64,000 nucleotides of DNA. Origin: a virus. Taxonomy: Duplodnaviria > Heunggongvirae > Uroviricota > Caudoviricetes. The stretch lies in IMG/VR virus record IMGVR_UViG_3300028886_000075. The stretch is one strand, 5' to 3'. Below are positions 3,218-60,275 of the stretch, piece after piece. A model generated the notes under the pieces. That model was not told where the DNA came from. It searched no databases and saw only the letters and a program-made list of their open reading frames with translations. The stretch's first letter is position 1. Every line of letters begins with the position of its first letter. The translations under genes were made by a program, and so were the position numbers.

Positions 3218-3769
3218 ATGAAGAACCTAAAAGACATTATATCTGAAAAGTTAATTATAAATAAGAATATAAAGATTAATAAATATAATTATTTTCCAAA
3301 GAATAGAAGAGAACTTACGGAAATTGTTACTAATAAATATAAAGATCTTAAAGATAAAAATGAAGTATTAGATTTAAATGATATTGATGTTTCAAAAATA
3401 AAAGATCTTTCTTATTTATTTGAACTTATATATCCTAAAAAAGTAGATATGAATAACTGGAATGTAAGTAATGTAACAGATATTCATGGGTTATTTTGGA
3501 ATAATCAAATTATTGAAGAAGTTCATATAGAAGACTGGGATGTACGTAATGTAGAAACAGCTTATGGTGCTTTTTATTTTTGTAAAAACATTAAAGAATT
3601 AAATTTAGATAATTGGGAATTCAACAAATGTACAGAATTTGATTTAATGTTCAAAGGATGTAAAGAGTTAGATACTCATTTTACAGATAACTGGAAAATA
3701 ACACAAACAATAACATGTGATAACATGTTTGAAGGTTGTAAATATGCTCCAAAATGGTATAAATTATGA
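3218..3769 (+). CDS. BspA-family (DUF285-type) repeat protein, CTS-like N-terminus MKNLKDIISEKLIINKN
   Basis: Repeats of WNVSNVTDIHGLF / WDVRNVETAYGAF type. First of three tandem paralogs. Confidence 0.7.
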   Translation: MKNLKDIISEKLIINKNIKINKYNYFPKNRRELTEIVTNKYKDLKDKNEVLDLNDIDVSKIKDLSYLFELIYPKKVDMNNWNVSNVTDIHGLFWNNQIIEEVHIEDWDVRNVETAYGAFYFCKNIKELNLDNWEFNKCTEFDLMFKGCKELDTHFTDNWKITQTITCDNMFEGCKYAPKWYKL

Positions 3770-4233
3770 AAAATCTAAAAGACATTATATTAGAAAAATT
3801 AATAATCAATAAAAACACTAAAATTGATAATTATCATTATCATCCTAAAGATAAAGGTGAACTAATGAAATTATTAGATAAACTTATTGAAGAAAGAGGA
3901 TGGGAAGGTAACTTTAATGATATTGATACATCTAATATAACAGATATGTCTATGTTATTTACATTCTCACGTCCAAAGTTTAATGGTGATATATCGGAAT
4001 GGGATGTAAGTAACGTTACCAATATGCGTTTTATGTTCTGTGATACAAAATTCAGTGGCGATATATCAAATTGGGATGTAAGCAATGTTAAATATATGAC
4101 TGAAATGTTTTATGGGTGTAATGATTTTAATTGTAATTTAAATAAATGGGATGTAAGTAAAGTTGAAGATACAAGAGATATGTTTTATGGATGCCCATTA
4201 GAAAAAAATCCACCAAAATGGTATAAAATATAA
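3766..4233 (+). CDS. BspA-family (DUF285-type) repeat protein, CTS-like N-terminus
   Basis: Four or more repeats of GDISxWDVSNVxxMxxMF. ATGA overlap with the upstream paralog. Confidence 0.7.
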   Translation: MKNLKDIILEKLIINKNTKIDNYHYHPKDKGELMKLLDKLIEERGWEGNFNDIDTSNITDMSMLFTFSRPKFNGDISEWDVSNVTNMRFMFCDTKFSGDISNWDVSNVKYMTEMFYGCNDFNCNLNKWDVSKVEDTRDMFYGCPLEKNPPKWYKI

Positions 4234-4245
4234 ATATATTAAACT

Positions 4246-4917
4246 ATGAAAAATCTAAAAGACATCATTTCAGAAAAACTTATAATTAATAAGAATAGTA
4301 AAGTTAAAAAAAATGTTAAGACAACAAATGAACTTAAACAACTTATTAATAAACTTATTGAAGAACGTGGTATAAATGCAGATCTTAATGATATAGACAC
4401 TTCTGAAATAACAGATATGTCATATTTATTTTCTGATTCTAAATTTAATGGAGATATATCTGAATGGAATGTAAGTAATGTAAAAAATATGACATGTATG
4501 TTTAATAATTCTAAATTTAATGGAGATATATCTGAATGGGATGTTAGTAATGTTACTAGAATGAACGGCATGTTTATGCGTAGTAATTTTAATAATAATA
4601 TATCTTATTGGGATGTTAGTAATGTTAAACATATGAGTTTTATGTTTGCTAAAAATAAAAAATTTAATGGAGATATATCTGAATGGGATGTAAGTAATGT
4701 TGAAGACATGGAATGTATGTTTGAATATTCAATTTTTAATGGAGATATATCTAAATGGGATGTAAGTAATGTTACTAATATGAAAGAAATGTTTTATCAT
4801 TCAAAATTTAATGATATAAATGGTGATATCTCTAAATGGAATATTCGTAATGGTGTAAATATGGAACGTATGTTTAAAGGATCACCTATAGAAAATAATC
4901 AACCAAATTTTTATTAA
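4246..4917 (+). CDS. BspA-family (DUF285-type) repeat protein, CTS-like N-terminus
   Basis: Seven repeats of FNGDISEWDVSNVxxMxxMF. Confidence 0.75.
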   Translation: MKNLKDIISEKLIINKNSKVKKNVKTTNELKQLINKLIEERGINADLNDIDTSEITDMSYLFSDSKFNGDISEWNVSNVKNMTCMFNNSKFNGDISEWDVSNVTRMNGMFMRSNFNNNISYWDVSNVKHMSFMFAKNKKFNGDISEWDVSNVEDMECMFEYSIFNGDISKWDVSNVTNMKEMFYHSKFNDINGDISKWNIRNGVNMERMFKGSPIENNQPNFY

Positions 4918-7606: not shown

Positions 7607-8164
7607 ATGGCTTGGTATACAATATTATTTATAACAGTTTTTAGTTTCTTTTTTATTAAATTGTTTATATCATTATTTGTTGGTGATATAGATTTGGATG
7701 TAGATTTAGATGGAGATTCAGATGTTGATTCTTCCAGTGTATTTTCTTTTAAAGGTATATTACATTTCTTAATGGGATTTAGTGCATTTCTTTTTGGTAA
7801 AGCACATATGTCAAATATAACTATTGAAAATGGATATGTACAATTTACATTATTTGACTATGTATTTGCGATTTTATCAGGAATAATTTTGGTTGTTATA
7901 TTATATTTTGCATATAAAGTTGCACTGAAAGCAAATTGTGATCCTAAACAACCTGAAGATTTAATTAATAATTCAAAAGGAAAGATCTATTTAAATATGG
8001 GTAATGGAAAATATTCTGTAGAAGCGTCAACACATGCAGGAACAATTAATGTTGAAGCATATTCTACAAATAAAGATTTAAAATCTGGAGATGAAGTTTT
8101 TTTAAAAAAGAATAATGATAGAATTATAATTGATTATGATACTGAAGGATCTACTATGGAATAA
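7607..8164 (+). CDS. membrane protein (3 predicted TM segments, acidic DxD repeats)
   Basis: Hydrophobic stretches WYTILFITVFSFFFIKLFISLFV, FLMGFSAFLF and AILSGIILVVILYFAY. Confidence 0.55.
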   Translation: MAWYTILFITVFSFFFIKLFISLFVGDIDLDVDLDGDSDVDSSSVFSFKGILHFLMGFSAFLFGKAHMSNITIENGYVQFTLFDYVFAILSGIILVVILYFAYKVALKANCDPKQPEDLINNSKGKIYLNMGNGKYSVEASTHAGTINVEAYSTNKDLKSGDEVFLKKNNDRIIIDYDTEGSTME

Positions 8165-8404
8165 AACAGTTAAGAATACTGCATTAGGAATATGGATATT
8201 TACTACATCATTAGTTGTTGGTAAGGCATTATATGATTACACTATATATTCTAATTTGAAATATATTAAAAAGAAGTTAAATAACGTAACATTTGATGAA
8301 ACATAACAATAATATATTTAATTAAGTATAAAATTACACAATATGATAAAGTATATTAATAACATTTTTAATTATTAACGTTTTTAATTTAAAATTTTTA
8401 ACAA

Positions 8405-10498
8405 ATGAGTGAACAAATTATTACTATGGCAATGATCGCCGGTTTTGTATTACTTGGCATTATTACAATTTGGGTAGTTCTTTCTAGATACCGTCGTTCT
8501 GCGCCTGATGAACTTTTGGTTGTATTCGGTAAATCTGGAAAGATTAAGGTTACCGACGAAAATGGTAAGGAACAAACAATTGTAGTTCCGTCTAAGATTA
8601 TTCAAGGTGGTGGTGCTTTTGTTTGGCCAATCATTCAAGATTACAAAAAGATGTCAATGGCACCTATTCAGATTAAGGTTACTGTTGATGGTATTGATTC
8701 TCAAGCTATTCCAATGCACTTGCCTGTTGTATTGACAACTGCTATTAGTAGGGATAAGGAAATTCAACAGAATGCTGCAACACGTTTCTTGAGTGCTAAG
8801 CCTGAGGAAATTCAGAAGCAAGTATCTGAAATTCTTGTTGGTGAAACACGTGCTATTATGGCAACAATGCTTATTGAGGAAATTAATGCTGAACGTGATA
8901 AGTTCTTGAATAAGGTTCGTGGTTCTCTTGAACAGGAGTTGGCTAAGGTCGGTTATGATGTTACTAATATTAACATTTCAGAAATTACTGATGATGCCAA
9001 TTATATTAAGAACTTAGGACAGAAGGCTGCTACAAAGGCACAAGCTAATGCTGAGGCTGATATTGCTGAACAGAGAAAACAAGGTAATGTAAAGATTGCT
9101 AATACTAAAAAGGAAGAGGAAATTCAGGTTGCTGCTGCAACTAAGGAGCAGGAAGTAACTGTTAACCAGACACGACAGGAGCAGGAAGTACAAGTTGCTG
9201 AGATTCAACGAGATAAGGAAATTAAACTTGCTGAGGCTGCTAAGGAACGTGAGTCAGGTATTGCTACTCAGGAAGCAGAGAAGGTTGCTAATATTGCTGA
9301 AGCTCAGGCTGATGCTGAATCTAAGAAAGCTGAAGCTATGGCAAAACAGGTAGCTAATGTATCTAATGCTGAGGCTGATGCTGAATCTAAGAAAGCTGAA
9401 GCTGATGCTCGTAAGGTTGCTGCTGTTGCTGCAAGAATGGCTGAAGCTGAGTCTGCTAAAGCAAAATCTGAATCTGAACAGAAGAAAGCTGTTGCTACTG
9501 CTGAGGCTGATGCTGAGGCTACTGAAAATGAACAGGAAGCAAAGAAGCAAACTCGTATTGCACAAGCTAATCAGTTAAAGGAAGCAGAAATTATCAAGGC
9601 TACACAGGAAAAGGAATCTAGGGCTGCTGAATATGAATCTCAAAAGAGACAAAAGAAAGCAGAACAGGACAAGAAGGCAGGTGTTGCTGAACAAATGGCA
9701 AAGATTGAGGTAGCTCAAGCTGCTGCTAAAGCAGGACAGGCAGAAGCTGATTCTATTAAAGTTTCTGAATCTGCTAAGGTTGAGGCTGAGATGTCTGTTG
9801 AAAAGATTCGTCAAGATCGTCAAATGGAAGTTAACAAGGCTGCTGCTAAGGCTGCTGAAGAAAAGTTAAATGCTACTGAGATTATTCCTGCACAGAAAGC
9901 TAAAGAGAAGGCAGTTATTGAAGCTGAAGCTGTGAAAATGAAGGCAGAACTTGAGGCTGAAGCTATTAAGGCAAAGATTTTACGTGAAGCTGAGGCTGAT
10001 GCCGAAAAGATTCGTTTGGCTAAGAATGCTGAGGCTGAAGGTACAAGAAATATTTTGATGGCTGAGGCTGAAGGTAAGAAGGCTTCATTGCTTGCTGAAG
10101 CTGAGGCTGAACAACAGAAAGCATTAGCTCCTGCTATGGCTCTTGAACGAATGGTTGCTGCTGTTGGTGGAAATCCTGATCTTGTTGTACAGTATAAGAT
10201 GGTTGATCAATATAAGGGTATTGCTGAGGCTCAGGCTAAGGTACTTGAACACATTCAGATGGGTAATGTTACCGTTTACGGTGATAAGAACACTGGTGCT
10301 GACTTCGCTAAGAGCTTCGTACAGAACTTTGCACCTGCTCTTGATATGATTAACAATGGAGTTAAGGGACAATTCTCTGAATTGTTTGGTAAGAAGAAGG
10401 ATGAACTTCCACAACCTGAACAACAGATTAATGAGGATAAGAAACCAAAGAGAAATTCTAAAAAGACAGATGATACTGCCTTCGATGAGGTAAAGTAA
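8405..10498 (+). CDS. SPFH/band-7 (flotillin/YqiK-like) membrane protein with long Ala/Glu/Lys coiled-coil
   Basis: N-terminal TM segment, then SAPDELLVVFGKSGK...IIQGGGAFVWPIIQDYKKMSMAPIQI, which is typical of flotillin-like SPFH proteins. About 450 aa of AEADAESKKAEA-type heptad repeats. Host-optimal codons. Confidence 0.75.
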   Translation: MSEQIITMAMIAGFVLLGIITIWVVLSRYRRSAPDELLVVFGKSGKIKVTDENGKEQTIVVPSKIIQGGGAFVWPIIQDYKKMSMAPIQIKVTVDGIDSQAIPMHLPVVLTTAISRDKEIQQNAATRFLSAKPEEIQKQVSEILVGETRAIMATMLIEEINAERDKFLNKVRGSLEQELAKVGYDVTNINISEITDDANYIKNLGQKAATKAQANAEADIAEQRKQGNVKIANTKKEEEIQVAAATKEQEVTVNQTRQEQEVQVAEIQRDKEIKLAEAAKERESGIATQEAEKVANIAEAQADAESKKAEAMAKQVANVSNAEADAESKKAEADARKVAAVAARMAEAESAKAKSESEQKKAVATAEADAEATENEQEAKKQTRIAQANQLKEAEIIKATQEKESRAAEYESQKRQKKAEQDKKAGVAEQMAKIEVAQAAAKAGQAEADSIKVSESAKVEAEMSVEKIRQDRQMEVNKAAAKAAEEKLNATEIIPAQKAKEKAVIEAEAVKMKAELEAEAIKAKILREAEADAEKIRLAKNAEAEGTRNILMAEAEGKKASLLAEAEAEQQKALAPAMALERMVAAVGGNPDLVVQYKMVDQYKGIAEAQAKVLEHIQMGNVTVYGDKNTGADFAKSFVQNFAPALDMINNGVKGQFSELFGKKKDELPQPEQQINEDKKPKRNSKKTDDTAFDEVK

Positions 10499-10519: not shown

Positions 10520-10556
10520 GAAAGGTTACTGATTAATTTCAGTAACCTTTTTGTTG
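10520..10556 (+). terminator. rho-independent terminator (aaaggttactg...cagtaaccttttt)
   Basis: 11-bp stem followed by a T-run, directly after the SPFH gene. Confidence 0.7.
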
Positions 10557-11325: not shown

Positions 11326-13524
11326 ATGTCTAGAAGTTTTACAGATAATAATGTAACATTTAATAATATTAGTGCTAGTACTAATACTGGAGGAACTAAA
11401 ATAAGTTCAGGTGATTATATATATGATGAAGAAGGTAATATCATTGAAAATAATCCAGTTATTAATAGTATTGATATTGATTGGAATAGTGCAGTAGTTC
11501 CAGGTTTAGAAAATCCTATTAATTCAACAGGTCAATTATTAAATATTGTTGGAACTATATATTCAGATTTAGAAGAATCACAATCTAATTTAAATAATTT
11601 ATCTGAATCTCAAAGTGAGTTATCTACTTTAGTTACTGAAAATAATGCAACATATACAGATTTATTTAATGAAATTAAACAACAAATTCAACAAATTATA
11701 GATGGACAAACTCAAATTGGTGGTTCAGGAAATCATGAATTATTAACACTTGCTGAATATGAAGCATTAATTGAAAAGGACCCCGATACAATATATTTTA
11801 TTGTTGATGATGATTCTGAAGAAGGTGAGGAAGAATTTGTAGAACCTGTTTCAACACAACTTTATGTTAATGGTGTTTTACATACTGAATCAAATGTTGT
11901 ATTACAACCAGGTCAAGTATATACATTAGAAGGTGATGTTGTCGGTACTTTAATAATTGATACTACATCAGTAGAAAACACAAACACTTTAGAAAACACT
12001 GAACTTAGACTTCATAATGTTAGAATTATAAGTTCTGAAGATTTCGGTATTAAATATTTAACACCTGTAGAAAACAAAGGTTATAAAGATTTAGTAATTA
12101 CACTTGAAAAGAATACAAAAAACTATATAGTATGTACTCAAACAACTGGTGCTGGTGAAGATGAACCTGGTGCAGTATATTCAATGAATAATTTAACTAT
12201 ACAAGGTGCAGGTTATTTAGCAGTACATAATACCGCAGGACATGGTATTAGAGCAACAGAAGTTAAGTTATTGGCTCCACATATTTATGCAGATGTTAGT
12301 CATGATGCAATACATGGTAAGAAAATTTGGATATGTGGTGGTACATATTATGTTGAAAACGCAAATGATGCATTTGGAACAGGAATTGGTGGTACAATTA
12401 AATATGCATACGGTAAATTATATGCACGTACATTGAGAGGTAAAACATTTAATGCTAAATCAGGATTAGATGAAAATGAAGTACAAAAAACAGGTGCATT
12501 AATTAATATTGAAGATTTTGACATTGAATCTTTAGGAACATATTCTAGAACAGAATCAGTTAATATCGCTGATTATTATACAACTGGTAATGTTAAAGAA
12601 TATACATCTGCTAATGGAGCAAAATTAATGACGGGTGGTACTGCAGTTGAAGAAACTACTGAAATGTATATTATATCTCAGCAATTTGTTGTAGTAAGCG
12701 GTAAAATAACAAAACCTATTAATATTCCATCAACATTAACTGATGTAACAATATATCTTAATGATGCAGCAATTATAACTAATTGTATTACGGTTAATGA
12801 AAACCAAGTTAATGAACCATGTATTTCATACGATAGTTCAAAATCTAATGTAAAGATTTTCGGTTTTAATGATACATATAATGTAATTATTAATAATTGT
12901 CCTGAAGTACAAAACGGTTATGATTGTGATGCAATTAAATCAGAACATAATATTAAATTTGAAATTAAAAATGATTCATACATTTATGTAACATCAAAAT
13001 CTGGTGATGGTATAGATGGTACTGATGTTGAAATAACTGATTCAAAGGGTGTTTTAATGATACATAACTGTGGTGAACGTGCAATTAAAGGTACTACTAT
13101 TATAATAGGTCCTGCAGGTAATACATTAGGTACAGATATTACTTTAATAACTACTCCTACAGATCCTGAATATAAAACTTTTGATGGTGTAGTTATTGCA
13201 TATGGGAATAGTTTAATTTATGGAAATAAAGAAATTGAATTGTCTTCAAATAAAATTGCTGTAGGCACTGGTTATGCAGATATATTTGCAAGAAAAGGTA
13301 AAGCTATCGATAAAGGTACATTTATTACTTCTGCAAATGAACTTAAAGGTTTACTTATATGTGGTTCAATAGGTGCTACTATTGCAATTAATATGGATAA
13401 CTCTGCAAATATTTATTATAATAATTTGGTTATATTAGATAATGTTACACTTTCAAATATTTCCAATGCTACTGATGAAACATATGTAGCATACCCATAT
13501 AAAAACAGTCCAATTTCTGCATAA
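11326..13524 (+). CDS. tail fibre / receptor-binding protein with a parallel beta-helix (pectate-lyase-like) domain
   Basis: N-terminal coiled region with the fibre motif HELLTLAEYEALIEKDPDTIYFI. The central part is Gly/Asn/Thr-rich with beta-helix-like repeats (HNTAGHGIRA..., GGTYYVENANDAFGTGIGG). It sits in the structural module. Confidence 0.5.
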   Translation: MSRSFTDNNVTFNNISASTNTGGTKISSGDYIYDEEGNIIENNPVINSIDIDWNSAVVPGLENPINSTGQLLNIVGTIYSDLEESQSNLNNLSESQSELSTLVTENNATYTDLFNEIKQQIQQIIDGQTQIGGSGNHELLTLAEYEALIEKDPDTIYFIVDDDSEEGEEEFVEPVSTQLYVNGVLHTESNVVLQPGQVYTLEGDVVGTLIIDTTSVENTNTLENTELRLHNVRIISSEDFGIKYLTPVENKGYKDLVITLEKNTKNYIVCTQTTGAGEDEPGAVYSMNNLTIQGAGYLAVHNTAGHGIRATEVKLLAPHIYADVSHDAIHGKKIWICGGTYYVENANDAFGTGIGGTIKYAYGKLYARTLRGKTFNAKSGLDENEVQKTGALINIEDFDIESLGTYSRTESVNIADYYTTGNVKEYTSANGAKLMTGGTAVEETTEMYIISQQFVVVSGKITKPINIPSTLTDVTIYLNDAAIITNCITVNENQVNEPCISYDSSKSNVKIFGFNDTYNVIINNCPEVQNGYDCDAIKSEHNIKFEIKNDSYIYVTSKSGDGIDGTDVEITDSKGVLMIHNCGERAIKGTTIIIGPAGNTLGTDITLITTPTDPEYKTFDGVVIAYGNSLIYGNKEIELSSNKIAVGTGYADIFARKGKAIDKGTFITSANELKGLLICGSIGATIAINMDNSANIYYNNLVILDNVTLSNISNATDETYVAYPYKNSPISA

Positions 13525-13751: not shown

Positions 13752-16700
13752 ATGGCAAAAAAACAAGAAACTTATAATGGTAATATTACTGAGTTTATTG
13801 ACTGGGTTAATGGTGTAGATTCAATAACTGGACGTAATAAAACAAATAATTTACAAGTATCTGGAGGAGCTATTAGAAAACTTATTCAGAATCATTTAAA
13901 AAATCCTATAACCATGATTGAAGATAAAGAAAATGGTTTATATAGAATATTCTCAAGTGAAGCTGCATATAAAGCTTGGGAAAGTGATCCGGATACATAT
14001 TCAAATTTAGAATTGTTTAATTTTGTTAGACCAAGTGATTATACAATTGAAACTAATTTGAATATTGATAATAGATATCTTATTTCAGGTTTGCATGATC
14101 AATCAATTACAAAATTAGTATATGATTGGGTTGTACAAAATGATAAAGGTACTTTTGAAGACAATATTGTTGCAACATATACAATAACCACAGCTGCAGG
14201 AGCAGTTACTAAATTCTCACAAAACTATGATACTTCTAGTAAACATGTTGAATTAGATGTTTATGATTACTTAGATGTTGGTCAGACTTCAGTAAGAATT
14301 GATTTACGTGCAGTATCAACAGGTGCTACTCGTAACTATACAATATATATTACTCAACTTATATTAGAATTAGAATCTGATTTTCCATATTATAGTGAAC
14401 ATACTCCTGGTGTTGCTATTACATATTCGTGGAATTTAAAAAGAAATAATGCAGATAATGCATCATCATTATATGTATATGTAGATGGTATTGAAGTAAA
14501 CAAACAAGATATACAATTAGGATCTGCTAATGTAAGTGGTACAGTTACTATATTAACAGATAATTTAGCTGGTAGTTTTATACCACCATTAAATGATGTT
14601 ACATCTGACGGTAGAGTTTCTCATGTATTACAGATGTGTGTAAAAACAAAATATAATAACTTTGATTTTACAAGTAACATTCTATATTATACATTTGAAA
14701 TTAAATCATCAGATAGTGGTATTAAAAACTACTTTATAAATAATTTCTTTAATTTCTCTGCAGGTACAAAGATATTCCCAATATCTTTTGAAGGATTATA
14801 TTTATCTGCTACACAATATATGCCAGTTAGTATGAATTGGGCATATTATACTGATATGTTAGCATCAGAAAATACTGTACAAATTAATTGGAAATTATAT
14901 GAAAATGATGAAGGAACAGATCTTGCTACAATGGAAGCTTCTAAAGGATATAAACCTGACCCATTAGAATTCATACCTGCTACATATTCTAAAGAAGTAG
15001 AATTTAGTCCTGCAACAGCAACAATTAAATTAGTTGGTGAATATACATCTCAAGATGGACAAACTCGCAAATTATGTTCTATACCTATGTATATTGCAAA
15101 ATCTGCATTAAATATGGTTGAAACATCTGGTTATGATTATAAATTATCTGCTTATGGTAGATCAAATGCTAGTCAAACTAAATCAATATGGAATGGAGAA
15201 AAGGCAGTTTCTAATTTAGATAATATTACAACAAAATTTACAAATATTAAATGGGATGATAATTCAGGATGGTTTGAACATTCTTTTAGAACATCTGGAG
15301 ATAATTCATATTGTGAAATATCATATAACCCATTTAAAGGTAACCCTTCAGCTGGTCGTACAATTGAAGTTGAATTTGAATCTGAAAAAATATCTGACCC
15401 ATCAGATATATTGATAACAATTGGTGTACCTTATGATCCTGCAGATCCTGAACATACAAGAGGTCCTCGTATTGAAATTGGTGCTAATAAGGCAACATTA
15501 TATGATAAGGCAGGTAATGATTGTATACATACAAACTATAAAGCAAATGAAAGAGTAAAAATTGCATTTATAATTAATCCTGAAAATAATACTTCAGATT
15601 CAGGTTTGATTTATATTGTTTCTGATGGTGTTTTGGAACGTGGTGCTATGGCTGCAGGTCATGACTTTACAACACAAAACGGTAAAATTATAATCGGTAA
15701 ATCTGCATCAGGTGTTAAATTCTATAACTTCCGTACATATTTACGTAATATTGGTTATAGTGATGAATACAATAATTTTATTTATGATAATGACGAAAAA
15801 TTAAAATTAATCAATAATAATGCAGTTGTAGATAGTAGTACACAACAAATTGATTATCAATTATGTTGTAGAAAACTTGATACAATATTAATTTCAGGTA
15901 ACCTTTCACAAATTCTTAAAGGTGAAACTGGTAAAGAAGAATCAGAAATAGATGTAACAATTGAACGTTTCTGTCCATTTGATACAACAAAAAACTTTAA
16001 AGTTGAAGGATGTAGAATTAGAAAACATGGTCAATCAACATTGAACTATCCTATCACATCAATGAAATTCTGGTTAAATAAATCAGTTAACCCTGAAAAA
16101 ACTCCTAAATTTACTTGTGAAGGACAAGCATATCTTGGTTTAAATAAAAACCGTTATAAGATGAAAGACAATTCTGTTCCAAGTAATAAGTTTATTCTTC
16201 AAGCTAACTACGCTGATTCATCAGGTGTACATAACGGAAGTATACTTCGTGCAATTAATGATAGTTGGTTTAATGCAGATATAAATGGAGAATTTAAATT
16301 AAGAACAGAACCACAGTTATTCTCAACAAATCAAACTGCTACATTAAATGATGGAACAGTAATGGGTAAAAATTCAGAAGGTCAAAACTGGGATGATTGT
16401 ACAAAGAATCCATCTACAGGTCAAACATATACATTCCCATATCAAATAAGAAATGCTCCTGATTCATTCCCTTGTGTAGTATTCTATAAAGATACAGAAG
16501 GTACAAATAAGACAACATTCTTAGGCCAGTATGTATTTATGGAAGACAAGAAATCTGATTTTACATTTGGTGAAAGATCTATTTATAAAGCAGATCCTAA
16601 AGATCCATTCTGTATGTATACTGAAAATAAAGATTATGATACAGATGATAATAAGATTTGGGATAACGATAATGTATTAAGAATTGAAGTACTTAATATT

Positions 16701-19700
16701 AATACATTCTTCACATCTTATATGAGTGATCATGATGAAAATAACATAAGTTTTGATGCTAGAATTCCTCAATCACAAGGTTTAGATATATATCGTTGGG
16801 AACAAGATTTCGAAGTTATATATCCTGACCCAGATGATTTAGCTGGTAAAGTTGAAAAAGGAACAGATAAATGGGGTACAAATTCTAAATTTAAGAGAAC
16901 AACAGATCCATTTGTTAATTGGTTTAAATGGTTAGTAAGTACTTATAATAATCATGAAAAATTCCGTACTGAAGCACCTGCACATTTAGATTTATATAAG
17001 ATGGCAGCATATTATATAACAATGCTTCGTCTTGGTCTTGTTGACTCTGGTGAACGTAACGTTCAAATTAAGACATATGATGGTGTTCACTTCCATTATG
17101 AACCTTGGGATATGGATATTGCGTTAGGTAATAAGAACACTGGTGGTATTGCATATGATCCTCCAATTAATCGTAATACTAAATTAGGTGCAGAAGAATG
17201 GGCTATATCTGGTAAATCTACAGTAACATCTAACTGGTTATGGGATGCATTAGAAGCGTGGCCATTATTTATGAATACAATTGTTCCTACAACTGCGGAA
17301 GCATTATCAAAGGCAGGATTCAATTATAATTCATTAACAAAAATGTTTGATGAAGAATATTCTGGTAGATGGTGTGAAATAATATATAATGAATCTGGTC
17401 ACTATAAATATATTGAAAATGGTGGTAGTGAACGTCAATACCTTGATTGGTTACAAGGTTCTCGTATTAATCACAGACACTGGTGGTTATCTACATCAAT
17501 GGACTATTATGATGCAAGATGGACTTGTGGAGATTTCAAATCTCACTTTATATATATTGCTGCAGGTCACACACAAACAACTGCAGGTACAGATATTATT
17601 ACAGTAACTCCATCTAATCCAACATTCTTAACATTAACACAAAATGATGGTGAAGTAAATACAGATATTGAAGTTAGTCAAGAAGGTGATTCAACGGGAG
17701 ATAATACTGAACAAGTAGTTGTTGCTAAAGAATGTTCTAGAACAAATCCTGCAACATTTGATATTTCAACTTTATCATTCTCAAATAAAGTACCTACAAA
17801 GATTTTGGGTGCAACTTATATTGAAACATTAGATATAGCTTGTCTTGCTAATCGTATCGACCTTTTGGATATTAAAGGTGCATATTCTGAAGTAAATGGC
17901 GCTTCTATTAAAACAATTAATGTTGGTAATACTATAACAAAAGATCCTGATTATAATGATAATTATCACTATATCGGTGGTGTTAATACAACATATAATT
18001 TACGTTTACAAGTAAGCCCACAAAATGATAACCTTGAAAACTTAAATACACTTAATATTAGAGGTCAATTAGGTAAACGTGGTTCTAACCCATCAGTTAA
18101 CCCTAACTCATTATTCCGTGGTGGTAATGAAAAGACTGGTCGTCCACAGATTAAGAACTTATATGCTATGGGTGCTCATTTTAACTATTTCCAAAGTTCT
18201 AAATCTGGTAATGATTTTGAAAATCTTGAATTACCTGCAATAAACTATGATGGTGTTAAAGATGCATATGAAAATCTTTTACCACTTTCTACTATGGGTA
18301 GTATTGAAATGCATAACAGTTCTTGGCAAAACATATCATTCTGGAATGGTGTAGTTGACCCTGTAACTAATAAGATTAAATATGAAAGATATAATATTAA
18401 TGGTAATTATGATTATTATGTACCTACATCTATATCATCAATAACATTTACAGGTAGTACAGCAAACTCTGCAAAAGCTAAAGATTTTATATTTAATTGG
18501 ATTAATGGTATTATTTATGAAACAACATTAGCACATGAAGGAGAAACTGAAGAACAAATACAAGCCGCTGTCGATGCTGCACTTGCAGAAAAAACATTAA
18601 TACTTAAGGATGTTAATTGGCAGAAAGAAACATGTGGTAATGATTTTGCTTTATCATATGATGACTTAATATTATTATCTAAACTTAATAATGGTGAAAA
18701 TAATAATGGTGGTACAACATATAAAGGTTATGTTATATTAACTGGTGGTGCAAAACTCACTCCAATTGAATTAACAAGATTACAAATATTATTTGGTGAA
18801 TCTGCATTTGAACGTACTGGTTCTGGTTTAATTATTGACCAAGAAAATGAAGATGTTCAAATTAATCTTGCTGGAGATGCATACATTGGAGATAATGGAG
18901 AATTCTATTTAAGAGAAGTACCAACTAATGCAACCAATAAAGGTAAAGGTGGTATTGCTGTACTTAATGCTACTAAGTTCAGATTACAAGAAATAACCAA
19001 TACTGATTATAACTGGTATGTTAAATCAGAATTTGGTTCTGATGATCCAACAAGTTCATATAAATCATGTAGAATATCTGTAGGACAAGATGGTAGAACA
19101 TATTTGACAGCATCTGAAAGTCAATATGGAAATTATCGTGTTAATGTAGGTGTTACTATTGGGCAAGAACAAAAATGGATAGTAATTAATATTATTGGAA
19201 CAACATATCCTGATAGTTTTGAAATTAATGCTAATCCAATTAATGGTCAATATCTTTATAATGTAGATGAAGGTTATATCTTTGGTAGTGGTTCTTCATC
19301 ATCTGAATTCTATATCACACCTAATAAAGAATATGATGGTACTATATATGATGTAGTTTGGACATTAAAACGTGATGCCGATAATGTAACTCTTATTAAT
19401 AAAGAATCATATAAGATTTATGAGCAAACTCGTTCATTAGAAGAAGTTATGTTAGCAGAAGCTGATTCTTATTTAAAGAAATGCTATAATGTTAATGGTA
19501 CTGTATCTAATCCATTAGATTCACCTTATGGAATAATGTTAAAGGCAATTAATTCACCTGTTACATCAGATATGTATTACTATACATTAATTGTAGATAT
19601 TATTTATGTATCTGGTAAAACAATTTCTACATCAAAGAAAATTATCATAATGGATGATCAACAACCAATTATGACAAATGGTACATTGTTATATCAATTA

Positions 19701-20318
19701 ATTAATACATTCTATAAAGCTAATCATATTACTACAGAATATCCTGAAGGTAAATCATTAGAACCAAGAGTATATAGATATCAATTATTAGATGTTGGTG
19801 ATACAATTGATTTTACAACTTCATTTATAAATCAATCAACTGGTCAAGAAACTCAGATACAACATATGATAACGGATTATTCTAATGAAACAATATTAAA
19901 GTATTTGATTAATGTTAAAAATGTTATATTTGATGGTCTTTCATTAACTAATATATATACTAATTCATCTTCAAATACAGAGATTAATCAATTCGATTTT
20001 AGTTATATGGTTAATCTTGAAACTGTTTCAATAGTAAATTGTGATCAATTAACTGCGAATATTGATTTATCTAATAACAATAAATTAGTTTCTGTAGATG
20101 CAAGAGGAACTACAATTAATATTATTGTACCTGAAAATTGTACAACATTAACTACATATAAACTAGGTACGCCAACAAGTGTAACATTACATGGATGTAC
20201 TGGGTTAGTTCCTGCTAATGTATCGACTGATGATTCAGATAATATTAATTATATTGATATTGTTAATTGTGGTAACAATCAATCATTCTCAATATTTGGA
20301 AATGTAATGGGAGTATAA
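13752..20318 (+). CDS. giant virion-associated protein (2188 aa) with C-terminal leucine-rich-repeat-like repeats
   Basis: Uninterrupted 6.5-kb ORF inside the structural module. The C-terminus carries LRR-like repeats (LSLTNIYTN..LETVSIVNCDQLTANIDLSNNNKLVSV). A central region is rich in His/Trp/Asp motifs (HFHYEPWDMD, HRHWWLS). Confidence 0.6.
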   Translation: MAKKQETYNGNITEFIDWVNGVDSITGRNKTNNLQVSGGAIRKLIQNHLKNPITMIEDKENGLYRIFSSEAAYKAWESDPDTYSNLELFNFVRPSDYTIETNLNIDNRYLISGLHDQSITKLVYDWVVQNDKGTFEDNIVATYTITTAAGAVTKFSQNYDTSSKHVELDVYDYLDVGQTSVRIDLRAVSTGATRNYTIYITQLILELESDFPYYSEHTPGVAITYSWNLKRNNADNASSLYVYVDGIEVNKQDIQLGSANVSGTVTILTDNLAGSFIPPLNDVTSDGRVSHVLQMCVKTKYNNFDFTSNILYYTFEIKSSDSGIKNYFINNFFNFSAGTKIFPISFEGLYLSATQYMPVSMNWAYYTDMLASENTVQINWKLYENDEGTDLATMEASKGYKPDPLEFIPATYSKEVEFSPATATIKLVGEYTSQDGQTRKLCSIPMYIAKSALNMVETSGYDYKLSAYGRSNASQTKSIWNGEKAVSNLDNITTKFTNIKWDDNSGWFEHSFRTSGDNSYCEISYNPFKGNPSAGRTIEVEFESEKISDPSDILITIGVPYDPADPEHTRGPRIEIGANKATLYDKAGNDCIHTNYKANERVKIAFIINPENNTSDSGLIYIVSDGVLERGAMAAGHDFTTQNGKIIIGKSASGVKFYNFRTYLRNIGYSDEYNNFIYDNDEKLKLINNNAVVDSSTQQIDYQLCCRKLDTILISGNLSQILKGETGKEESEIDVTIERFCPFDTTKNFKVEGCRIRKHGQSTLNYPITSMKFWLNKSVNPEKTPKFTCEGQAYLGLNKNRYKMKDNSVPSNKFILQANYADSSGVHNGSILRAINDSWFNADINGEFKLRTEPQLFSTNQTATLNDGTVMGKNSEGQNWDDCTKNPSTGQTYTFPYQIRNAPDSFPCVVFYKDTEGTNKTTFLGQYVFMEDKKSDFTFGERSIYKADPKDPFCMYTENKDYDTDDNKIWDNDNVLRIEVLNINTFFTSYMSDHDENNISFDARIPQSQGLDIYRWEQDFEVIYPDPDDLAGKVEKGTDKWGTNSKFKRTTDPFVNWFKWLVSTYNNHEKFRTEAPAHLDLYKMAAYYITMLRLGLVDSGERNVQIKTYDGVHFHYEPWDMDIALGNKNTGGIAYDPPINRNTKLGAEEWAISGKSTVTSNWLWDALEAWPLFMNTIVPTTAEALSKAGFNYNSLTKMFDEEYSGRWCEIIYNESGHYKYIENGGSERQYLDWLQGSRINHRHWWLSTSMDYYDARWTCGDFKSHFIYIAAGHTQTTAGTDIITVTPSNPTFLTLTQNDGEVNTDIEVSQEGDSTGDNTEQVVVAKECSRTNPATFDISTLSFSNKVPTKILGATYIETLDIACLANRIDLLDIKGAYSEVNGASIKTINVGNTITKDPDYNDNYHYIGGVNTTYNLRLQVSPQNDNLENLNTLNIRGQLGKRGSNPSVNPNSLFRGGNEKTGRPQIKNLYAMGAHFNYFQSSKSGNDFENLELPAINYDGVKDAYENLLPLSTMGSIEMHNSSWQNISFWNGVVDPVTNKIKYERYNINGNYDYYVPTSISSITFTGSTANSAKAKDFIFNWINGIIYETTLAHEGETEEQIQAAVDAALAEKTLILKDVNWQKETCGNDFALSYDDLILLSKLNNGENNNGGTTYKGYVILTGGAKLTPIELTRLQILFGESAFERTGSGLIIDQENEDVQINLAGDAYIGDNGEFYLREVPTNATNKGKGGIAVLNATKFRLQEITNTDYNWYVKSEFGSDDPTSSYKSCRISVGQDGRTYLTASESQYGNYRVNVGVTIGQEQKWIVINIIGTTYPDSFEINANPINGQYLYNVDEGYIFGSGSSSSEFYITPNKEYDGTIYDVVWTLKRDADNVTLINKESYKIYEQTRSLEEVMLAEADSYLKKCYNVNGTVSNPLDSPYGIMLKAINSPVTSDMYYYTLIVDIIYVSGKTISTSKKIIIMDDQQPIMTNGTLLYQLINTFYKANHITTEYPEGKSLEPRVYRYQLLDVGDTIDFTTSFINQSTGQETQIQHMITDYSNETILKYLINVKNVIFDGLSLTNIYTNSSSNTEINQFDFSYMVNLETVSIVNCDQLTANIDLSNNNKLVSVDARGTTINIIVPENCTTLTTYKLGTPTSVTLHGCTGLVPANVSTDDSDNINYIDIVNCGNNQSFSIFGNVMGV

Positions 20319-20340
20319 TTATTTTATTAAATATTTATAA

Positions 20341-20375
20341 CATGGGTAATTATTCAATTAATTACCCATGTTTTG
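20341..20375 (+). terminator. rho-independent terminator (12-bp stem catgggtaatta/taattacccatg then TTTTG)
   Basis: Read directly from the sequence. Confidence 0.75.
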
Positions 20376-20489: not shown

Positions 20490-22193
20490 ATGACAAATAA
20501 GCGTTGCTTAATTTATGAAACATTAGGCAAAGTTTCAGATCTTCAGATTGTTGAGTCTGAAAATAGCAACGAAATGCGTCTTCATGGTATATTTGGTGTA
20601 TGTGGAATAAAAAACCAAAATAATCGTGTTTATGATAAAGATAATTACGGTCAAATGGTTGAATCTTTACAAAAAGAAATTCAAGAACATGGATGTCCAG
20701 GTGAATTAGAACACCCTAATTCTATGAATATTAATTTGCAAAATGTTTCACATAAGATAGAAGATATTCAAATGAATGAAGATGGTACAATTACTGGTAC
20801 AATACTTTTGCTTAATACTCCAAGTGGTAAGATTGCAAAAGCTATTGTTGAAGGTGGTTTACCACTTTATATTTCTTCTCGTGGTGCCGGTACAATTACT
20901 AATGAAGGTCGTGTTACGTTATCTACTATTAAGACATATGATCTAGTTGGTACTCCTGGATTTAGTCAAGCTAAACTTACTTTAAAGCCAAATCAAACTC
21001 TTGAATGTCTCAATGAAGGTCTAGATAATGATACAAATATCTGGGCAGTTATAGATGAAGGTAAAGATGATGATGATTTACTTGATAGTAATAATGACAA
21101 AGATAAGGATTCTAATGATAATGAATCTAAGGATAAATCTAAAGAAGAATCTAAGGATAAATCTAAAGAAGAACCAAAAGATAATGAAAATGACGATAAC
21201 AAAAATAATGGCAATGATAATATTGATATGAAAGAATTGAAAGAAGCTATAGATAAACTTACAGAAAAAGTTGAATCTTTAGAAGCTGAACTTCATGTAG
21301 CTCAAGAATCTTTGAATGAGACAAAAGAATCAATTAAGCCAATTAATTATGAAGCAATCGAGAAGTGGTGTACTGAGGAATTTGCTCCATCTTTAAAAAA
21401 TGAATTTAATGAAGATGTAGAAGAAAAAATTCAAAACAGTATCAATGAATCAATTGAATCATTAATGGATAATGTACAAAATTGGATAGTTGAAGAATTT
21501 GCTCCAGAAGTACAAAATTGGGTAGTTGAAGAATTTGCTCCAGAAGTACAAAATTGGGTAGTTGAAGAATTCTCACCTGAAGTACAAAATTGGATAACAG
21601 AAGAATTTGCTCCAGAAGTACAAAATTGGGTAGTTGAAGAATTTGCTCCAGAAGTACAAAATTGGGTAGTTGAAGAATTCTCACCTGAAGTACAAAATTG
21701 GATAACAGAAGAATTTGCTCCAGTTGTTGAAGGTTGGATAACTGAAGAATTTGCTCCAGAACAATCACAAACTATTGAAGCTAAAGTAAATGAAAATGTA
21801 TCTGCATTTATGGAATCTCAAAAGGCAGGTCGTTTAGATGAAATTGATAGCTTATTAGAATCTATTTCTCAAGATAGTAATTCAGATGTAAATAAGATTA
21901 TTAAAGAACAAGCTATTGAAAATAAATATAAAGGAGTTTTTGTTGTAGAAAATATGCCTTCTCAATATACACCTCAATGGGAATTATTAGATGAAGCACG
22001 TCAACAAGAAATAATCCGTACATCAAAAATGTATGATTTCTCTAAAGAAGGTGTTTTAGAATCATTCTGGGCTAACCAAGATTTATCAAAAACTACTGTA
22101 ACTAATAAAGTAAATGAATCAGTTAATCCAATTAATTCATACCAAATGTCTATAGTAGAAAAGATGAAAGCTCTTCGTAATCATGCAATTTAA
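20490..22193 (+). CDS. gp21: prohead protease (T4 gp21-like, peptidase U9 family) fused to an acidic repeat-rich C-terminal (scaffold-like) region
   Basis: The N-terminus aligns by eye with T4 gp21: PGELEHP against LGELNHP, YISSRGAGT against GVSSRGLGS, and DLVGTPGFSQA against DAVWGPSAP. The C-terminus has a KD/E low-complexity stretch and 8 copies of QNWVVEEFAPEV. Confidence 0.8.
   Translation: MTNKRCLIYETLGKVSDLQIVESENSNEMRLHGIFGVCGIKNQNNRVYDKDNYGQMVESLQKEIQEHGCPGELEHPNSMNINLQNVSHKIEDIQMNEDGTITGTILLLNTPSGKIAKAIVEGGLPLYISSRGAGTITNEGRVTLSTIKTYDLVGTPGFSQAKLTLKPNQTLECLNEGLDNDTNIWAVIDEGKDDDDLLDSNNDKDKDSNDNESKDKSKEESKDKSKEEPKDNENDDNKNNGNDNIDMKELKEAIDKLTEKVESLEAELHVAQESLNETKESIKPINYEAIEKWCTEEFAPSLKNEFNEDVEEKIQNSINESIESLMDNVQNWIVEEFAPEVQNWVVEEFAPEVQNWVVEEFSPEVQNWITEEFAPEVQNWVVEEFAPEVQNWVVEEFSPEVQNWITEEFAPVVEGWITEEFAPEQSQTIEAKVNENVSAFMESQKAGRLDEIDSLLESISQDSNSDVNKIIKEQAIENKYKGVFVVENMPSQYTPQWELLDEARQQEIIRTSKMYDFSKEGVLESFWANQDLSKTTVTNKVNESVNPINSYQMSIVEKMKALRNHAI
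21474..21762 (+). repeat. in-frame 36-bp tandem repeat x8 (encodes VQNW[IV][VT]EEF[AS]PE)
   Basis: Direct repeats of gtacaaaattgggtagttgaagaatttgctccagaa with minor variants. Confidence 0.85.
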
Positions 22194-22300: not shown

Positions 22301-24058
22301 ATGTTTAATGAACAAAATGGCGCACAGACATGGGAGAAAATGTTGAAAGAAAACTTCAACGTAACAGACCAGGAAAAACTTAACTGGGTTTCTCAATATG
22401 CTGCTATTCACGAAATTCACGAATCTCAACTTGGAATCAATGGTGGTAACGTAGTAACAAGTACAGCTTATCCAGGTGTTGGTCCTATCTATACAACTCC
22501 AATGAATACTCTTGGTATTGGTAACCCAACTGCTCCAAGTCAATTAGATCCAATGAGCACTGCTCCTTACAATCAAGCTAACCCAACAGGTTCATTCTGG
22601 GGACAAACTCCAGGTTCTGGTGATATTCCAGTATCTACACTTCCAATGGCTCTTAACGTTGCATTGTTAACTATTGGTCTTGAACTTGTACCTGTTATTC
22701 CTGCTAAGGGTCCTTGGGCTATGTTAACATACATGGACTTCCCATACGCTGGTGGTAAACTTGGTCGTGTAAATGAAACATCTTTCGATGGTAAAGGTGA
22801 AAAGAATGAAAACAAACCAATCTACATCAAGATTAAAGGTTTAACACTTCCACAAATCGCTGAAATACGTGAAGCTATGGAAGCTGCTCAAAATCCTGTT
22901 AAAGCTGACGATGCTGTAGTAGTTGCAGGTTTCAAAGGTACATTCATTATGCTTGGTCGTATGGATGCTTGTCCTCTTGTTAAGGTTGTAGAATGCACAG
23001 ATGCAAATACTTCAATAGTTGAAGAATTTAATGCTGCTACATCTGTTGTAATTGGTTCTAAGACAATTACTCTTGCTGCAGGTCAAAAGGTTACTCCTGA
23101 TTTCGTACAAACATCTGTTGATTTAGTTGACGGTTTCGCTAACTTCGCTACAGGTAAGAAAGAATCTATGACACGTGCTCAAAATGAAACTGGTACAGGT
23201 AATGTAATTGGTCTTCGTTTATTCAGTAAGTGGGTTCAAATGGGTTCATACGAAGTTACTGGTACTGTAACTCGTCAACAATTACAAGATCTTCCACTTT
23301 ATGGTGTTGATGCTGTAGGTAAAGTTATGGAAGCTCTTCAAAACGAAATTACACAACACATCAACCAACGTATTCTTGAAAGAGTATTTGCTCTTGGTGT
23401 TACAAATGCTGTACAACAAAAGGCTCGTCAAGGTGTTGATTTGAACTTGTGGATGGGTAAGACAGGTGCTTCTGTTGACATGGCAGATCATTATGCTGGT
23501 GTTCCTCACTTCACAGATATCTATGGTACAGACCATAAACCATTATGGAAAGGTATTTCTAACTCTGAAGTTAACACTTCTGCAGAAAATCTTTCAACAC
23601 GTCAACGTCGTATCATGAGCCGTATCTTAGCTGCTGCTAACTTAATCCAATTGGTAGGTCGTCGTGGTCGTCCAACATGGATCGTTACTAACGGTAAGAT
23701 TGCTTCTGCTCTTCAAGATGTATCTGGTTATGTAGTTGCTCCAATGCTTAATACAATGTCTCAAGCTAATACTCAAAACTTATATCACGCTGGTACAGTT
23801 GCTGGTCTTCAAGTTTATGTAGATCCATATATGGACTGGAATGATACACGTATCTGTATTGGTCGTAAGGGTACAGGTAATGAACCTGGTGTAATATTCA
23901 TGCCATACATTCTTGCTGATACTGTATCTATCACTGCTGAAGGTACAATGGCTCCTAAGATGTTGGTTAACAGCCGTTATGGTATCGCTGAAGCTGGTTT
24001 CTTCCCAGAACTTGCATACTTCACATTGGTTGTTGATTCAGAATTTGATTTGATCTAA
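22301..24058 (+). CDS. gp23: major capsid protein (T4 gp23-like)
   Basis: Several collinear matches to T4 gp23: DLPLYGVDAVGKVMEALQNEITQHINQRILE against LRAVHGMDADAELSGILATEIMLEINREVVD, GRRGRPTWIVTNGKIASALQDV against GRGEGNFIIASRNVVNVLASV, and the C-terminus MPYILADT...RYGIAEAGFFPE against APYVALTP...RYGIGINPFAE. Host-optimal codons. A terminator follows the gene. Confidence 0.88.
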   Translation: MFNEQNGAQTWEKMLKENFNVTDQEKLNWVSQYAAIHEIHESQLGINGGNVVTSTAYPGVGPIYTTPMNTLGIGNPTAPSQLDPMSTAPYNQANPTGSFWGQTPGSGDIPVSTLPMALNVALLTIGLELVPVIPAKGPWAMLTYMDFPYAGGKLGRVNETSFDGKGEKNENKPIYIKIKGLTLPQIAEIREAMEAAQNPVKADDAVVVAGFKGTFIMLGRMDACPLVKVVECTDANTSIVEEFNAATSVVIGSKTITLAAGQKVTPDFVQTSVDLVDGFANFATGKKESMTRAQNETGTGNVIGLRLFSKWVQMGSYEVTGTVTRQQLQDLPLYGVDAVGKVMEALQNEITQHINQRILERVFALGVTNAVQQKARQGVDLNLWMGKTGASVDMADHYAGVPHFTDIYGTDHKPLWKGISNSEVNTSAENLSTRQRRIMSRILAAANLIQLVGRRGRPTWIVTNGKIASALQDVSGYVVAPMLNTMSQANTQNLYHAGTVAGLQVYVDPYMDWNDTRICIGRKGTGNEPGVIFMPYILADTVSITAEGTMAPKMLVNSRYGIAEAGFFPELAYFTLVVDSEFDLI

Positions 24059-24125
24059 TAAATATATGTGAGACATTTCTGACTCGCCTCTATATATTAA
24101 TCACGTTCCTAAATGGAACAACACT

Positions 24126-24156
24126 GAGCAGGGTTTTTAAACTCTGCTCTTTTTTG
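24126..24156 (+). terminator. rho-independent terminator after the capsid gene (gagcag-12nt-ctgctc then TTTTTTG), preceded by a second small hairpin gttcc-taaat-ggaac (24105-24119)
   Basis: Read directly from the sequence. Confidence 0.7.
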
Positions 24157-24303
24157 TTAAAAAATATTCATTATTAATAATAATATTTGAATATAAATTT
24201 TCAAATGATATTAAAAAATTTTATTTTTATTAAATTGTATAATATTCTATTTGCATAAATTATGGTTATAGAATATATTAATACAATTAATGCATATAAT
24301 AAA

Positions 24304-24311
24304 TATAAATA
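24304..24311 (+). promoter_or_regulatory. TATAAATA T4-type late-promoter-like motif upstream of the tail sheath gene
   Basis: Exact TATAAATA lies 15-22 nt upstream of the ATG at 24326. Confidence 0.35.
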
Positions 24312-24325
24312 AAAGATATACAAAT

Positions 24326-27401: not shown

Positions 27402-27425
27402 GGAGATGGGTTTAAACCCATCTCC
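27402..27425. terminator. 24-nt perfect GC-containing palindrome ggagatgggttt/aaacccatctcc between the sheath and tube genes (terminator or RNA-processing hairpin; no T-run)
   Basis: Read directly from the sequence. Confidence 0.4.
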
Positions 27426-27468
27426 ATATATAAAAAAGAATATAAGAAATACATAATTAATATAAATA

Positions 27469-28080: not shown

Positions 28081-28111
28081 TGTTGAATTTTTTATAAATT
28101 ATCTAAATATA

Positions 28112-28149
28112 AAATACACATACTCAGAGTATGTGTATTTTGTTTTTTT
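28112..28149 (+). terminator. rho-independent terminator (aaatacacatactc-aga-gtatgtgtattt then TGTTTTTTT)
   Basis: Read directly from the sequence. Confidence 0.75.
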
Positions 28150-33414: not shown

Positions 33415-33422
33415 AATATTGA

Positions 33423-60140: not shown

Positions 60141-60275
60141 TATGAATATTGGAACATTTAGTATGTTAAATATGATGAGACATAACAATATGATGGAAGA
60201 ACAAAAACGTCGTCATCATAGAATGAGAGAATTAGTTGCTAAACGTAGAAAAGAAAATAATAATGAAGAAGAATG
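60141..60275 (+). CDS. small basic ORF (44 aa), stop overlaps the topoisomerase start (ATGA)
   Basis: Found by manual reading. Confidence 0.3.

Follow-up and report, generated by a model that had tools for sequence, protein, structure and literature searches.

A flotillin-family protein with a long hendecad-periodic helix and a constant membrane partner gene in very large uncultivated phages

Features of the locus

We analyzed a 64,000-nucleotide stretch of DNA from a tailed phage of the Caudoviricetes (IMG/VR record IMGVR_UViG_3300028886_000075; hereafter the window), in which a gene at positions 8405-10498 encodes a 697-residue protein of the flotillin family. Directly upstream, on the same strand, lies a gene for a polytopic membrane protein, and we refer to these two genes as the cassette. 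An earlier, sequence-only reading of this DNA had described the 697-residue protein as a membrane-anchored SPFH protein with an exceptionally long heptad-repeat coiled coil. The features of the cassette are listed below, with structural assignments from AlphaFold2 (AF2) models and their predicted local distance difference test (pLDDT) scores.

7607-8164, plus strand: NfeD-like partner, 185 residues; three transmembrane (TM) helices, an acidic loop and a C-terminal beta domain in the AF2 model
8136-8306, plus strand: 56-residue, single-TM open reading frame (ORF) between the partner and flotillin genes, supported by tblastn conservation
8307-8404, plus strand: AT-rich untranslated leader whose sequence lacks a Shine-Dalgarno motif
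8405-10498, plus strand: gene of the flotillin-family SPFH protein, 697 residues
8408-8485, plus strand: N-terminal TM anchor, residues 2-27 (AF2 helix; hydropathy peak 2.62)
8489-8989, plus strand: SPFH (Band 7) domain, residues ~29-195 (Pfam PF01145, AF2, Foldseek)
9002-10162, plus strand: wall helix, residues 200-586, about 385 residues (AF2 prediction, 11-residue periodicity)
9275-9472, plus strand: three tandem 66-nucleotide repeats (22 residues, a double hendecad), copies 100/80/64% identical
10175-10354, plus strand: cap helix (residues 591-615), GNVTVYG strand region (~620-627) and C-terminal helix (630-650) (AF2)
10355-10495, plus strand: disordered tail rich in Lys, Asp and Glu, residues 651-697 (pLDDT <50)
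10520-10551, plus strand: terminator-like hairpin with a 13-bp stem, a 6-nucleotide loop and a following T-run (folding against shuffles)

A protein of the flotillin branch

The only strongly hydrophobic segment of the 697-residue protein covers residues ~5-27, within the AF2 helix of residues 2-27, and the N-terminal TM helix claimed in the sequence-only reading was thus borne out. RYRR follows this helix, which under the positive-inside rule would place most of the protein in the cytoplasm. The SPFH domain named in the same reading was confirmed by a Pfam Band_7 match (PF01145) over residues 35-224 (E 1.9e-21, 77.4 bits against a gathering cut-off of 23.6 bits) and by matches to flotillin folds, with pLDDT values of 85-95 over the domain. 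The AF2 model, a monomer prediction, was built with 38 aligned homologues. Residues 225-620 are composed of 24% Ala, 17% Glu and 13% Lys, and residues 591-650 appear to follow the layout of the flotillin cap, beta-barrel and C-terminal domain at a pLDDT of only ~50-65. The GNVTVYG segment in this region is conserved in the homologue consensus.

In a sequence search of the PDB, flotillin-1/2 were the only matches (E down to 5e-20), and the sole NCBIfam match was the FloT model, aligned over residues 12-380. BLASTP against Escherichia coli YqiK aligned the TM helix, the SPFH domain and the long helix at 24% identity (E 1e-16). Foldseek with the AF2 model returned the flotillin complexes 9l3g and 9bq2 first and then HflK/C, prohibitin, stomatin, erlin and QmcA-YbbJ. 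On this sequence and model evidence, we place the protein in the flotillin branch of the SPFH superfamily, with high confidence in its molecular identity.

Hendecad periodicity and wall length

The sequence-only reading gave the protein a coiled coil of ~450 residues built of heptads, whereas AF2 predicts a helix of about 385 residues that carries no heptad signal. Power at periods 7 and 3.5 is at shuffle level (residues 225-590; equal or higher in 797-2714 of 3000 shuffles), and among all periods from 2 to 30 residues the strongest is 11.05, a peak matched in 0-1 of 3000 shuffles. Arrays of 33 nucleotides (11 codons) in the gene were also picked up by Tandem Repeats Finder. In the solved flotillin structure, helices are packed side by side in a right-handed barrel with a 186-residue wall that lacks heptads; this wall is closed off by a cap helix together with a beta-barrel strand and the C-terminal domain, in a cage of 32 x 19 x 22 nm (PMC11260169). 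The 11-residue (hendecad) pattern of the phage helix is what would be expected of such a side-by-side, right-handed wall. The flotillin of phage csAssE-Sib and a chromosomal bacterial homologue are also hendecad-periodic, and YqiK is weakly so.

Across the family, the helix changes length in steps of this period. A 36-nucleotide string occurs exactly at 9368-9403 and with one mismatch at 9302-9337 (0 of 100 shuffles give two matches), in agreement with the near-identical repeat noted earlier around 9300-9410, and both copies fall inside the 66-nucleotide tandem array. Close homologues are shorter by exactly 22 or 44 residues at the position of this array; therefore, the repeat can be regarded as a double-hendecad module with variable copy number. 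We also compared 94 representatives (mutual identity <=50%) with the window protein by counting residues between conserved anchors. In 45-49 of the 94, the length offset was exactly divisible by 11, with ~26 more at 11n-1; between anchors at residues 227 and 542, exact divisibility held for 68 of 86. No mod-7 pattern was found in the helix lengths of the representatives. The representatives are mutually related, and binomial p-values for the 11-residue steps are only indicative.

A constant membrane partner

The gene upstream of the flotillin gene went unmentioned in the sequence-only reading. The AF2 model of its 185-residue product (pLDDT 78) has TM helices at residues 3-25, 48-66 and 82-109 and a five-strand OB-type domain at residues 123-176, and the best fold match of the product is the NfeD C-terminal domain. 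Family models were less informative. Pfam, PHROG and NCBIfam scans assigned the partner to no family, and weak recurrent Big_3_5 matches cover the beta domain only. The Pfam NfeD model PF01957 gave no match at E<=1 in the partner or its 30 aligned homologues, and the partner profile gave only chance-level matches against PDB sequences. Membership of the YqiJ family was considered and rejected: E. coli YqiJ itself matches both YqiJ models (PF21001 and PF07290) but the partner matches neither, and a comparison of the partner profile with E. coli YqiJ by hhalign returned a probability of 0.2%. A link to a cellular partner was found through the chromosomal bacterial flotillin homologue (37% identical, on a 7.8-Mb contig), which has a 212-residue partner upstream. 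In hhalign, the similarity of this bacterial partner to the phage partner profile (E 1.9e-5) extends over the final TM helix and the OB domain, and the bacterial protein shows a faint, sub-threshold NfeD match.

The pairing of the two genes is strict. A partner homologue lies directly 5' of the flotillin relative, on the same strand, in 80 of 80 related IMG/VR loci (45-84% identity, contigs of up to 435 kb), and the same pair is adjacent in csAssE-Sib and in the related loci L002, L005, L008, L010 and L091. With a partner of this fold class, the pair is reminiscent of the NfeD/YqiJ-flotillin operon of bacteria. The acidic loop of the partner (GDIDLDVDLDGDSDVD, at 7685-7741, residues 27-45) is DxDxDG-like; D31, D33, D35, D39 and D41 are invariant among homologues and G36 is nearly so. 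This loop is similar to DxDxDG motifs that bind calcium, and it is predicted to lie on the cytoplasmic side, beneath the cage proposed below.

The 56-residue ORF between the two genes is found at the same place in L019, L032, L014 and L020 (tblastn, 43-51% identity, E 1e-14 to 3e-11), with weaker tblastn matches in L006, L015 and L056. It is not present in L002, L008 and L010, where the partner and flotillin genes abut. Its product may be a third component of the cassette within the closest clade.

Residence in large phages

More than 1200 proteins match the flotillin at E<=1e-5, and the full HMMER scan gave 3061 clusters at E<=1e-3. The best 120 matches, all metagenomic, are 68-84% identical. 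Genomic contexts at 79%, 70%, 56% and 39% flotillin identity were all phage-like, and IMG/VR holds at least 120 viral contigs with a flotillin relative. Contigs of the close clade reach 376-435 kb, those of a clade at 46-55% identity ~160-190 kb, and partner homologues lie on contigs of 456-460 kb. Among 185,579 GTDB species genomes, the only close relative (L006, CACYVR010000057.1, 76% identity) sits on a 5.9-kb contig binned in the uncultured rumen Methanobrevibacter metagenome-assembled genome RUG12316; this contig is probably a misbinned phage fragment. As this sole relative is one short binned contig, we found no convincing close cellular homologue in that set. An archaeal host remains conceivable from the binning of L006.

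On sequence grounds, the partner-flotillin pair is a long-standing resident of several large-phage lineages rather than a recent passenger. The flotillin gene has a GC content of 40%, and we considered a recent horizontal gain from a host of higher GC content. This was rejected because the pair is conserved across phage lineages down to ~39% identity and because the gene shares its synonymous-codon preferences with the capsid gene, a bias that recurs in relatives. In the L010 lineage (~160-219-kb phages with a 39%-identical flotillin), genes for an RF-1 domain release factor and a tRNA nucleotidyltransferase were observed at 12872-13492 and 16990-17677, which hints at stop-codon recoding there.

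Indications of expression

The sequence-only reading held that the codon usage of the flotillin gene matches that of the capsid gene, and this was upheld by two measures. The GC content at third codon positions (GC3) is 0.268 in the flotillin gene, the highest of 42 ORFs, compared with 0.217 in the capsid gene and ~0.11 in bulk, and on an axis separating capsid from bulk codon usage the gene ranks second of 42, above the tube and sheath genes. Both the flotillin and the capsid gene favour GCT, AAG, TCT, CGT, CTT, TTC and TAC and avoid ATA; they depart from each other at GAG, CAG and ATC. The flotillin gene of L005, a locus that also contains structural genes, shows the same capsid-like bias, and ATA is avoided in four lineages.

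The strong terminator noted earlier behind the gene corresponds to the hairpin at 10520-10551 (dG -22 kcal/mol, z -6.6, equalled by 0 of 200 shuffles). Strong hairpins of their own, similar in strength to this one, also lie 3' of the gene for a 2188-residue protein (20334-20373) and of the capsid (24118-24157), sheath (27402-27441) and tube (28105-28144) genes. The codon bias and the separate terminator are consistent with high expression of the flotillin, without being proof of it. The earlier statement that the protein is probably abundant thus stands by proxy only, through the capsid-like bias in the window and in a relative and through the terminator.

Leaders of genes in the window are 90% A/T. 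A Shine-Dalgarno-like 4-mer at -20 to -4 occurs at 0 of 40 gene starts in the window, against 4.6 +/- 2.0 in random windows. Such leaders fit Shine-Dalgarno-independent initiation as in Bacteroidota, a candidate host group. A search for a motif shared upstream of the flotillin and structural genes gave TATAAC-like strings with unconvincing enrichment, and a sigma-70 consensus scan was uninformative in DNA of 25% GC content.

Gene surroundings

The window (GC content ~25%) is a myovirus region with a capsid of the T4-like type, containing gp21-like, gp23-like, sheath and tube genes. The following genes lie 3' of the cassette.

11326-13524, plus strand: 732-residue protein with a Cthe_2159 carbohydrate-binding beta-helix and a phage tail-tip motif, just 3' of the flotillin gene
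13752-20318, plus strand: 2188-residue protein, phrog_14959, function not annotated
20490-22193: gp21-like prohead protease
22301-24058: gp23-like major capsid protein
24290-27385: tail sheath
27469-28080: tail tube

The 732- and 2188-residue proteins are probably virion or tail-fibre proteins. The nearest GenBank phage relatives of the capsid protein are only 29-36% identical and belong to an uncultured 462-kb phage, Sphingomonas phage PAU, Tenacibaculum jumbo phages and Lak megaphages.

Several other genes were observed across the window. Three tandem DUF285 genes lie at 3218-4917 (plus strand), and two BspA-type leucine-rich-repeat (LRR_5) proteins are encoded at 45858-47234 and 48844-51147 (plus strand); both are surface-protein families typical for host-associated bacteria and are phage-borne here. 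A sigma-70 region-2 protein, a GyrB/topoisomerase II-like protein and an RNA ligase are encoded at 57541-58758, 60273-62165 and 123-1520, respectively, and a minus-strand block at 32641-35213 contains MazG and an SNF2/ResIII helicase. The 64-kb window has neither tRNA genes nor a second SPFH gene.

A putative membrane cage

Overall, after combining these lines of evidence, we propose that the cassette is a phage-borne NfeD/YqiJ-flotillin operon that forms an abundant membrane cage on the cytoplasmic face during infection and thereby stabilises or compartmentalises the host membrane. By analogy with known assemblies, we give this interpretation a probability of about 0.7. It is carried directly by the domain identity, the fold class of the partner, the strict pairing, the periodicity, the quantised lengths and the codon bias.

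From these observations we infer the topology, the oligomeric cage, its abundance and timing, and its biological role as follows. The N-terminal helix of the 697-residue protein would sit in the cytoplasmic membrane of the host, with the remainder in the cytoplasm, and many copies may assemble next to one another into a closed dome that covers a patch of membrane, a proposal made by analogy with the solved flotillin, HflK/C and QmcA-YbbJ assemblies. The SPFH domains would rest on the membrane, the hendecad helices of ~385 residues would form a right-handed, single-layer wall, and the cage would be sealed at its top by the cap helix and the short strand. Because the wall is about twice that of human flotillin, the height of the cage would be roughly doubled, and it would evolve by 11-residue steps. 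The three-TM OB-fold partner may reside inside the enclosed patch, promoting or regulating assembly, and in the closest clade the product of the 56-residue ORF may join the partner and the flotillin. High expression of the flotillin gene during infection is probable. Such a cage would most likely stabilise or compartmentalise the host membrane while a very large phage completes its lengthy infection cycle; it might preserve the integrity of the envelope, for instance, or sequester membrane proteins.

Several observations weigh against this interpretation. The protein scores 129.8 bits against the 700-bit cut-off of the FloT equivalog NF058507, so it is flotillin-like rather than an orthologue of Bacillus subtilis FloT, and the Pfam Flot model (PF15975) gave no C-terminal match at E<=0.01, although a relative, P0232, does match it. 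The wall helix has a pLDDT of 50-70 in a monomer model, and a fold-back hairpin may occur instead of an extended wall. GAG and CAG are enriched in the flotillin gene and not in the capsid gene; hence, the high GC3 may partly reflect the Ala/Glu/Lys composition of the helix. Additionally, the cassette stands immediately 5' of the head/tail module (protease and gp23-like capsid) in the window and in L005 and among replication, nucleotide and RNA-repair genes in other lineages, and as its neighbours vary by lineage, the context gives no clue to function. The role in infection that we suggest is drawn by analogy only.

Alternative explanations

A more specialised version of the cage seems rather unlikely to us. 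Here, the cassette would build a phage-specific compartment of protein bound to the membrane, an extra-tall cage (roughly 35-55 nm, with a height tunable by 11-residue steps) with which very large phages of gut and rumen would enclose a defined membrane patch for a dedicated infection step, which could be prohead initiation, lysis/holin control or shielding from membrane-targeting host immunity. If true, such a cage would parallel, at the membrane, the phage nucleus of chimalliviruses.

The cassette might instead serve superinfection exclusion or anti-defence, with the cage covering membrane sites of incoming DNA or buffering the damage done by membrane-attacking abortive-infection effectors. 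The predicted membrane location of both proteins and the high expression suggested above would suit this role, conservation in many large phages suggests a phage-specific benefit, and cellular SPFH proteins are tied to protection from membrane stress (PMC8581546). However, none of the PADLOC models matched the flotillin, its partner, the 56-residue ORF or the gene 3' of the flotillin gene, the fold is not that of any known exclusion protein, and we found neither linked defence or anti-defence genes nor any sequence sign of specificity for DNA entry. We consider this explanation unlikely.

It is quite improbable that the cassette acts as an HflK/C-like regulator, in which the cage would enclose host FtsH, another protease or a channel, and thereby protect phage proteins or reprogramme proteolysis. 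The fold is like that of the HflK/C-FtsH complexes (7vhq, 7wi3, 9cz2), and NfeD partners have historically been tied to the regulation of membrane proteases (3cp0 description; PMC13086221). In sequence and fold, however, the phage protein is nearer to flotillin than to HflK/C, the single SPFH gene in the window does not allow a K/C-type heterodimer, and the partner is a short NfeD protein without the ClpP protease domain. The predicted cytoplasmic orientation is also contrary to that of HflK/C, which is periplasmic.

If anything, it is less probable that the cage is a membrane platform for virion assembly, for instance one where proheads are started at the inner membrane, as happens in T4. The position of the cassette immediately 5' of the head/tail module in the window and L005 would agree with this, as would the codon bias and terminator style that it has in common with the head and tail genes, but the linkage to head genes is not conserved elsewhere. 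Finally, the sequence-only reading had offered a virion fibre, whisker or decoration built from the coiled coil, the SPFH similarity then being coincidental; despite the long helical region, the structural genes close by and three peptides of an SPFH lipoprotein of a Vi01-like phage in a virion preparation (PMC10892097), this is highly improbable given a strong SPFH match, a hendecad-patterned and heptad-free helix as in the flotillin wall, a TM anchor with an obligatory polytopic membrane partner, a C-terminus that appears to have the flotillin cap layout and closest structures that are membrane cages.

We therefore retain the flotillin cage that stabilises or compartmentalises the host membrane as the preferred interpretation. 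Flotillin and other SPFH cages have been visualised only recently, and very large uncultivated phages that carry a cassette with capsid-like codons and exact 11-residue wall steps offer a natural experiment on cage geometry. They also suggest that large phages actively remodel the organisation of the host membrane. If confirmed, the cassette would represent a compact two- or three-gene system for the assembly of a flotillin cage and a new aspect of the cell biology of infection.

Comparison with known systems

Phage flotillins as a kind are already known, and a protein of this identity is by itself no novelty. Earlier work describes SPFH proteins in T4-like phages (RB43/44RR/Aeh1 ORFs; PMC1524935), in Vi01-like phages as the lipoprotein gp200 (PMC10892097), in Kayvirus as MbpS (PMC7150955) and in a Gibbsiella phage, where the authors call the reason for its presence unclear (PMC13239085). 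Earlier annotations include the phage SPFH family phrog_200, and the BFVD database holds ~30 viral proteins of the SPFH fold, mostly short and stomatin-like. The sequence-only reading had called membrane-microdomain scaffolds unusual in phages, and this holds only in part, as such annotations exist in T4-like, Vi01-like, Kayvirus and other phages. Most annotated phage SPFH proteins are stomatin-like lipoproteins of ~280-340 residues without a long wall. In GenBank, csAssE-Sib and Vibrio phage KIT04 each carry a protein annotated as "flotillin family protein"; the clade of the window is 29-38% identical to these two and has a longer wall. A comparative review of jumbo phages mentions neither SPFH, flotillin nor NfeD, and in the literature that we searched, no phage flotillin had been studied functionally.

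Human flotillin-1/2 (9bq2, 9l3g) are the best match in both sequence and fold and share the order of SPFH domain and Ala/Glu-rich, heptad-free wall, apparently followed by cap, strand and C-terminal part. Features that set the phage protein apart are a true N-terminal TM helix, a predicted wall of ~385 rather than 186 residues, a prokaryote-type membrane partner and the lack of a match to the C-terminal Pfam Flot model, and its single gene suggests a homo-oligomer instead of the 1:1 heteromer. Across SPFH families, wall helices span 44-189 residues (PMC11260169), and the phage wall is about twice the longest of that survey. QmcA-YbbJ (8z5g) and HflK/C-FtsH belong to the same superfamily and follow the same cage logic. 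NfeD partners have been proposed to promote SPFH oligomerisation, and QmcA-YbbJ, which has such a partner, forms a cage of 26 heterodimers (PMC13086221). Compared with the phage protein, these are stomatin- or HflK/C-type proteins with short walls, and their fold scores are lower than those of flotillin.

The gene order is that of yqiJ-yqiK of E. coli and nfeD2(yuaF)-floT of B. subtilis, in which the gene of a polytopic OB-fold membrane protein also lies directly 5' of a TM-anchored flotillin. Unlike these operons, the cassette is carried by phages and has a phage-like codon bias, and its partner has an invariant DxDxDG-like loop and no YqiJ or NfeD Pfam match. The phage wall is 100-170 residues longer than that of typical bacterial flotillins of 500-560 residues. 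What is new here is therefore the strict cassette in large gut and rumen phages, with its divergent partner, its double-length wall quantised in hendecads and its capsid-like codon bias.

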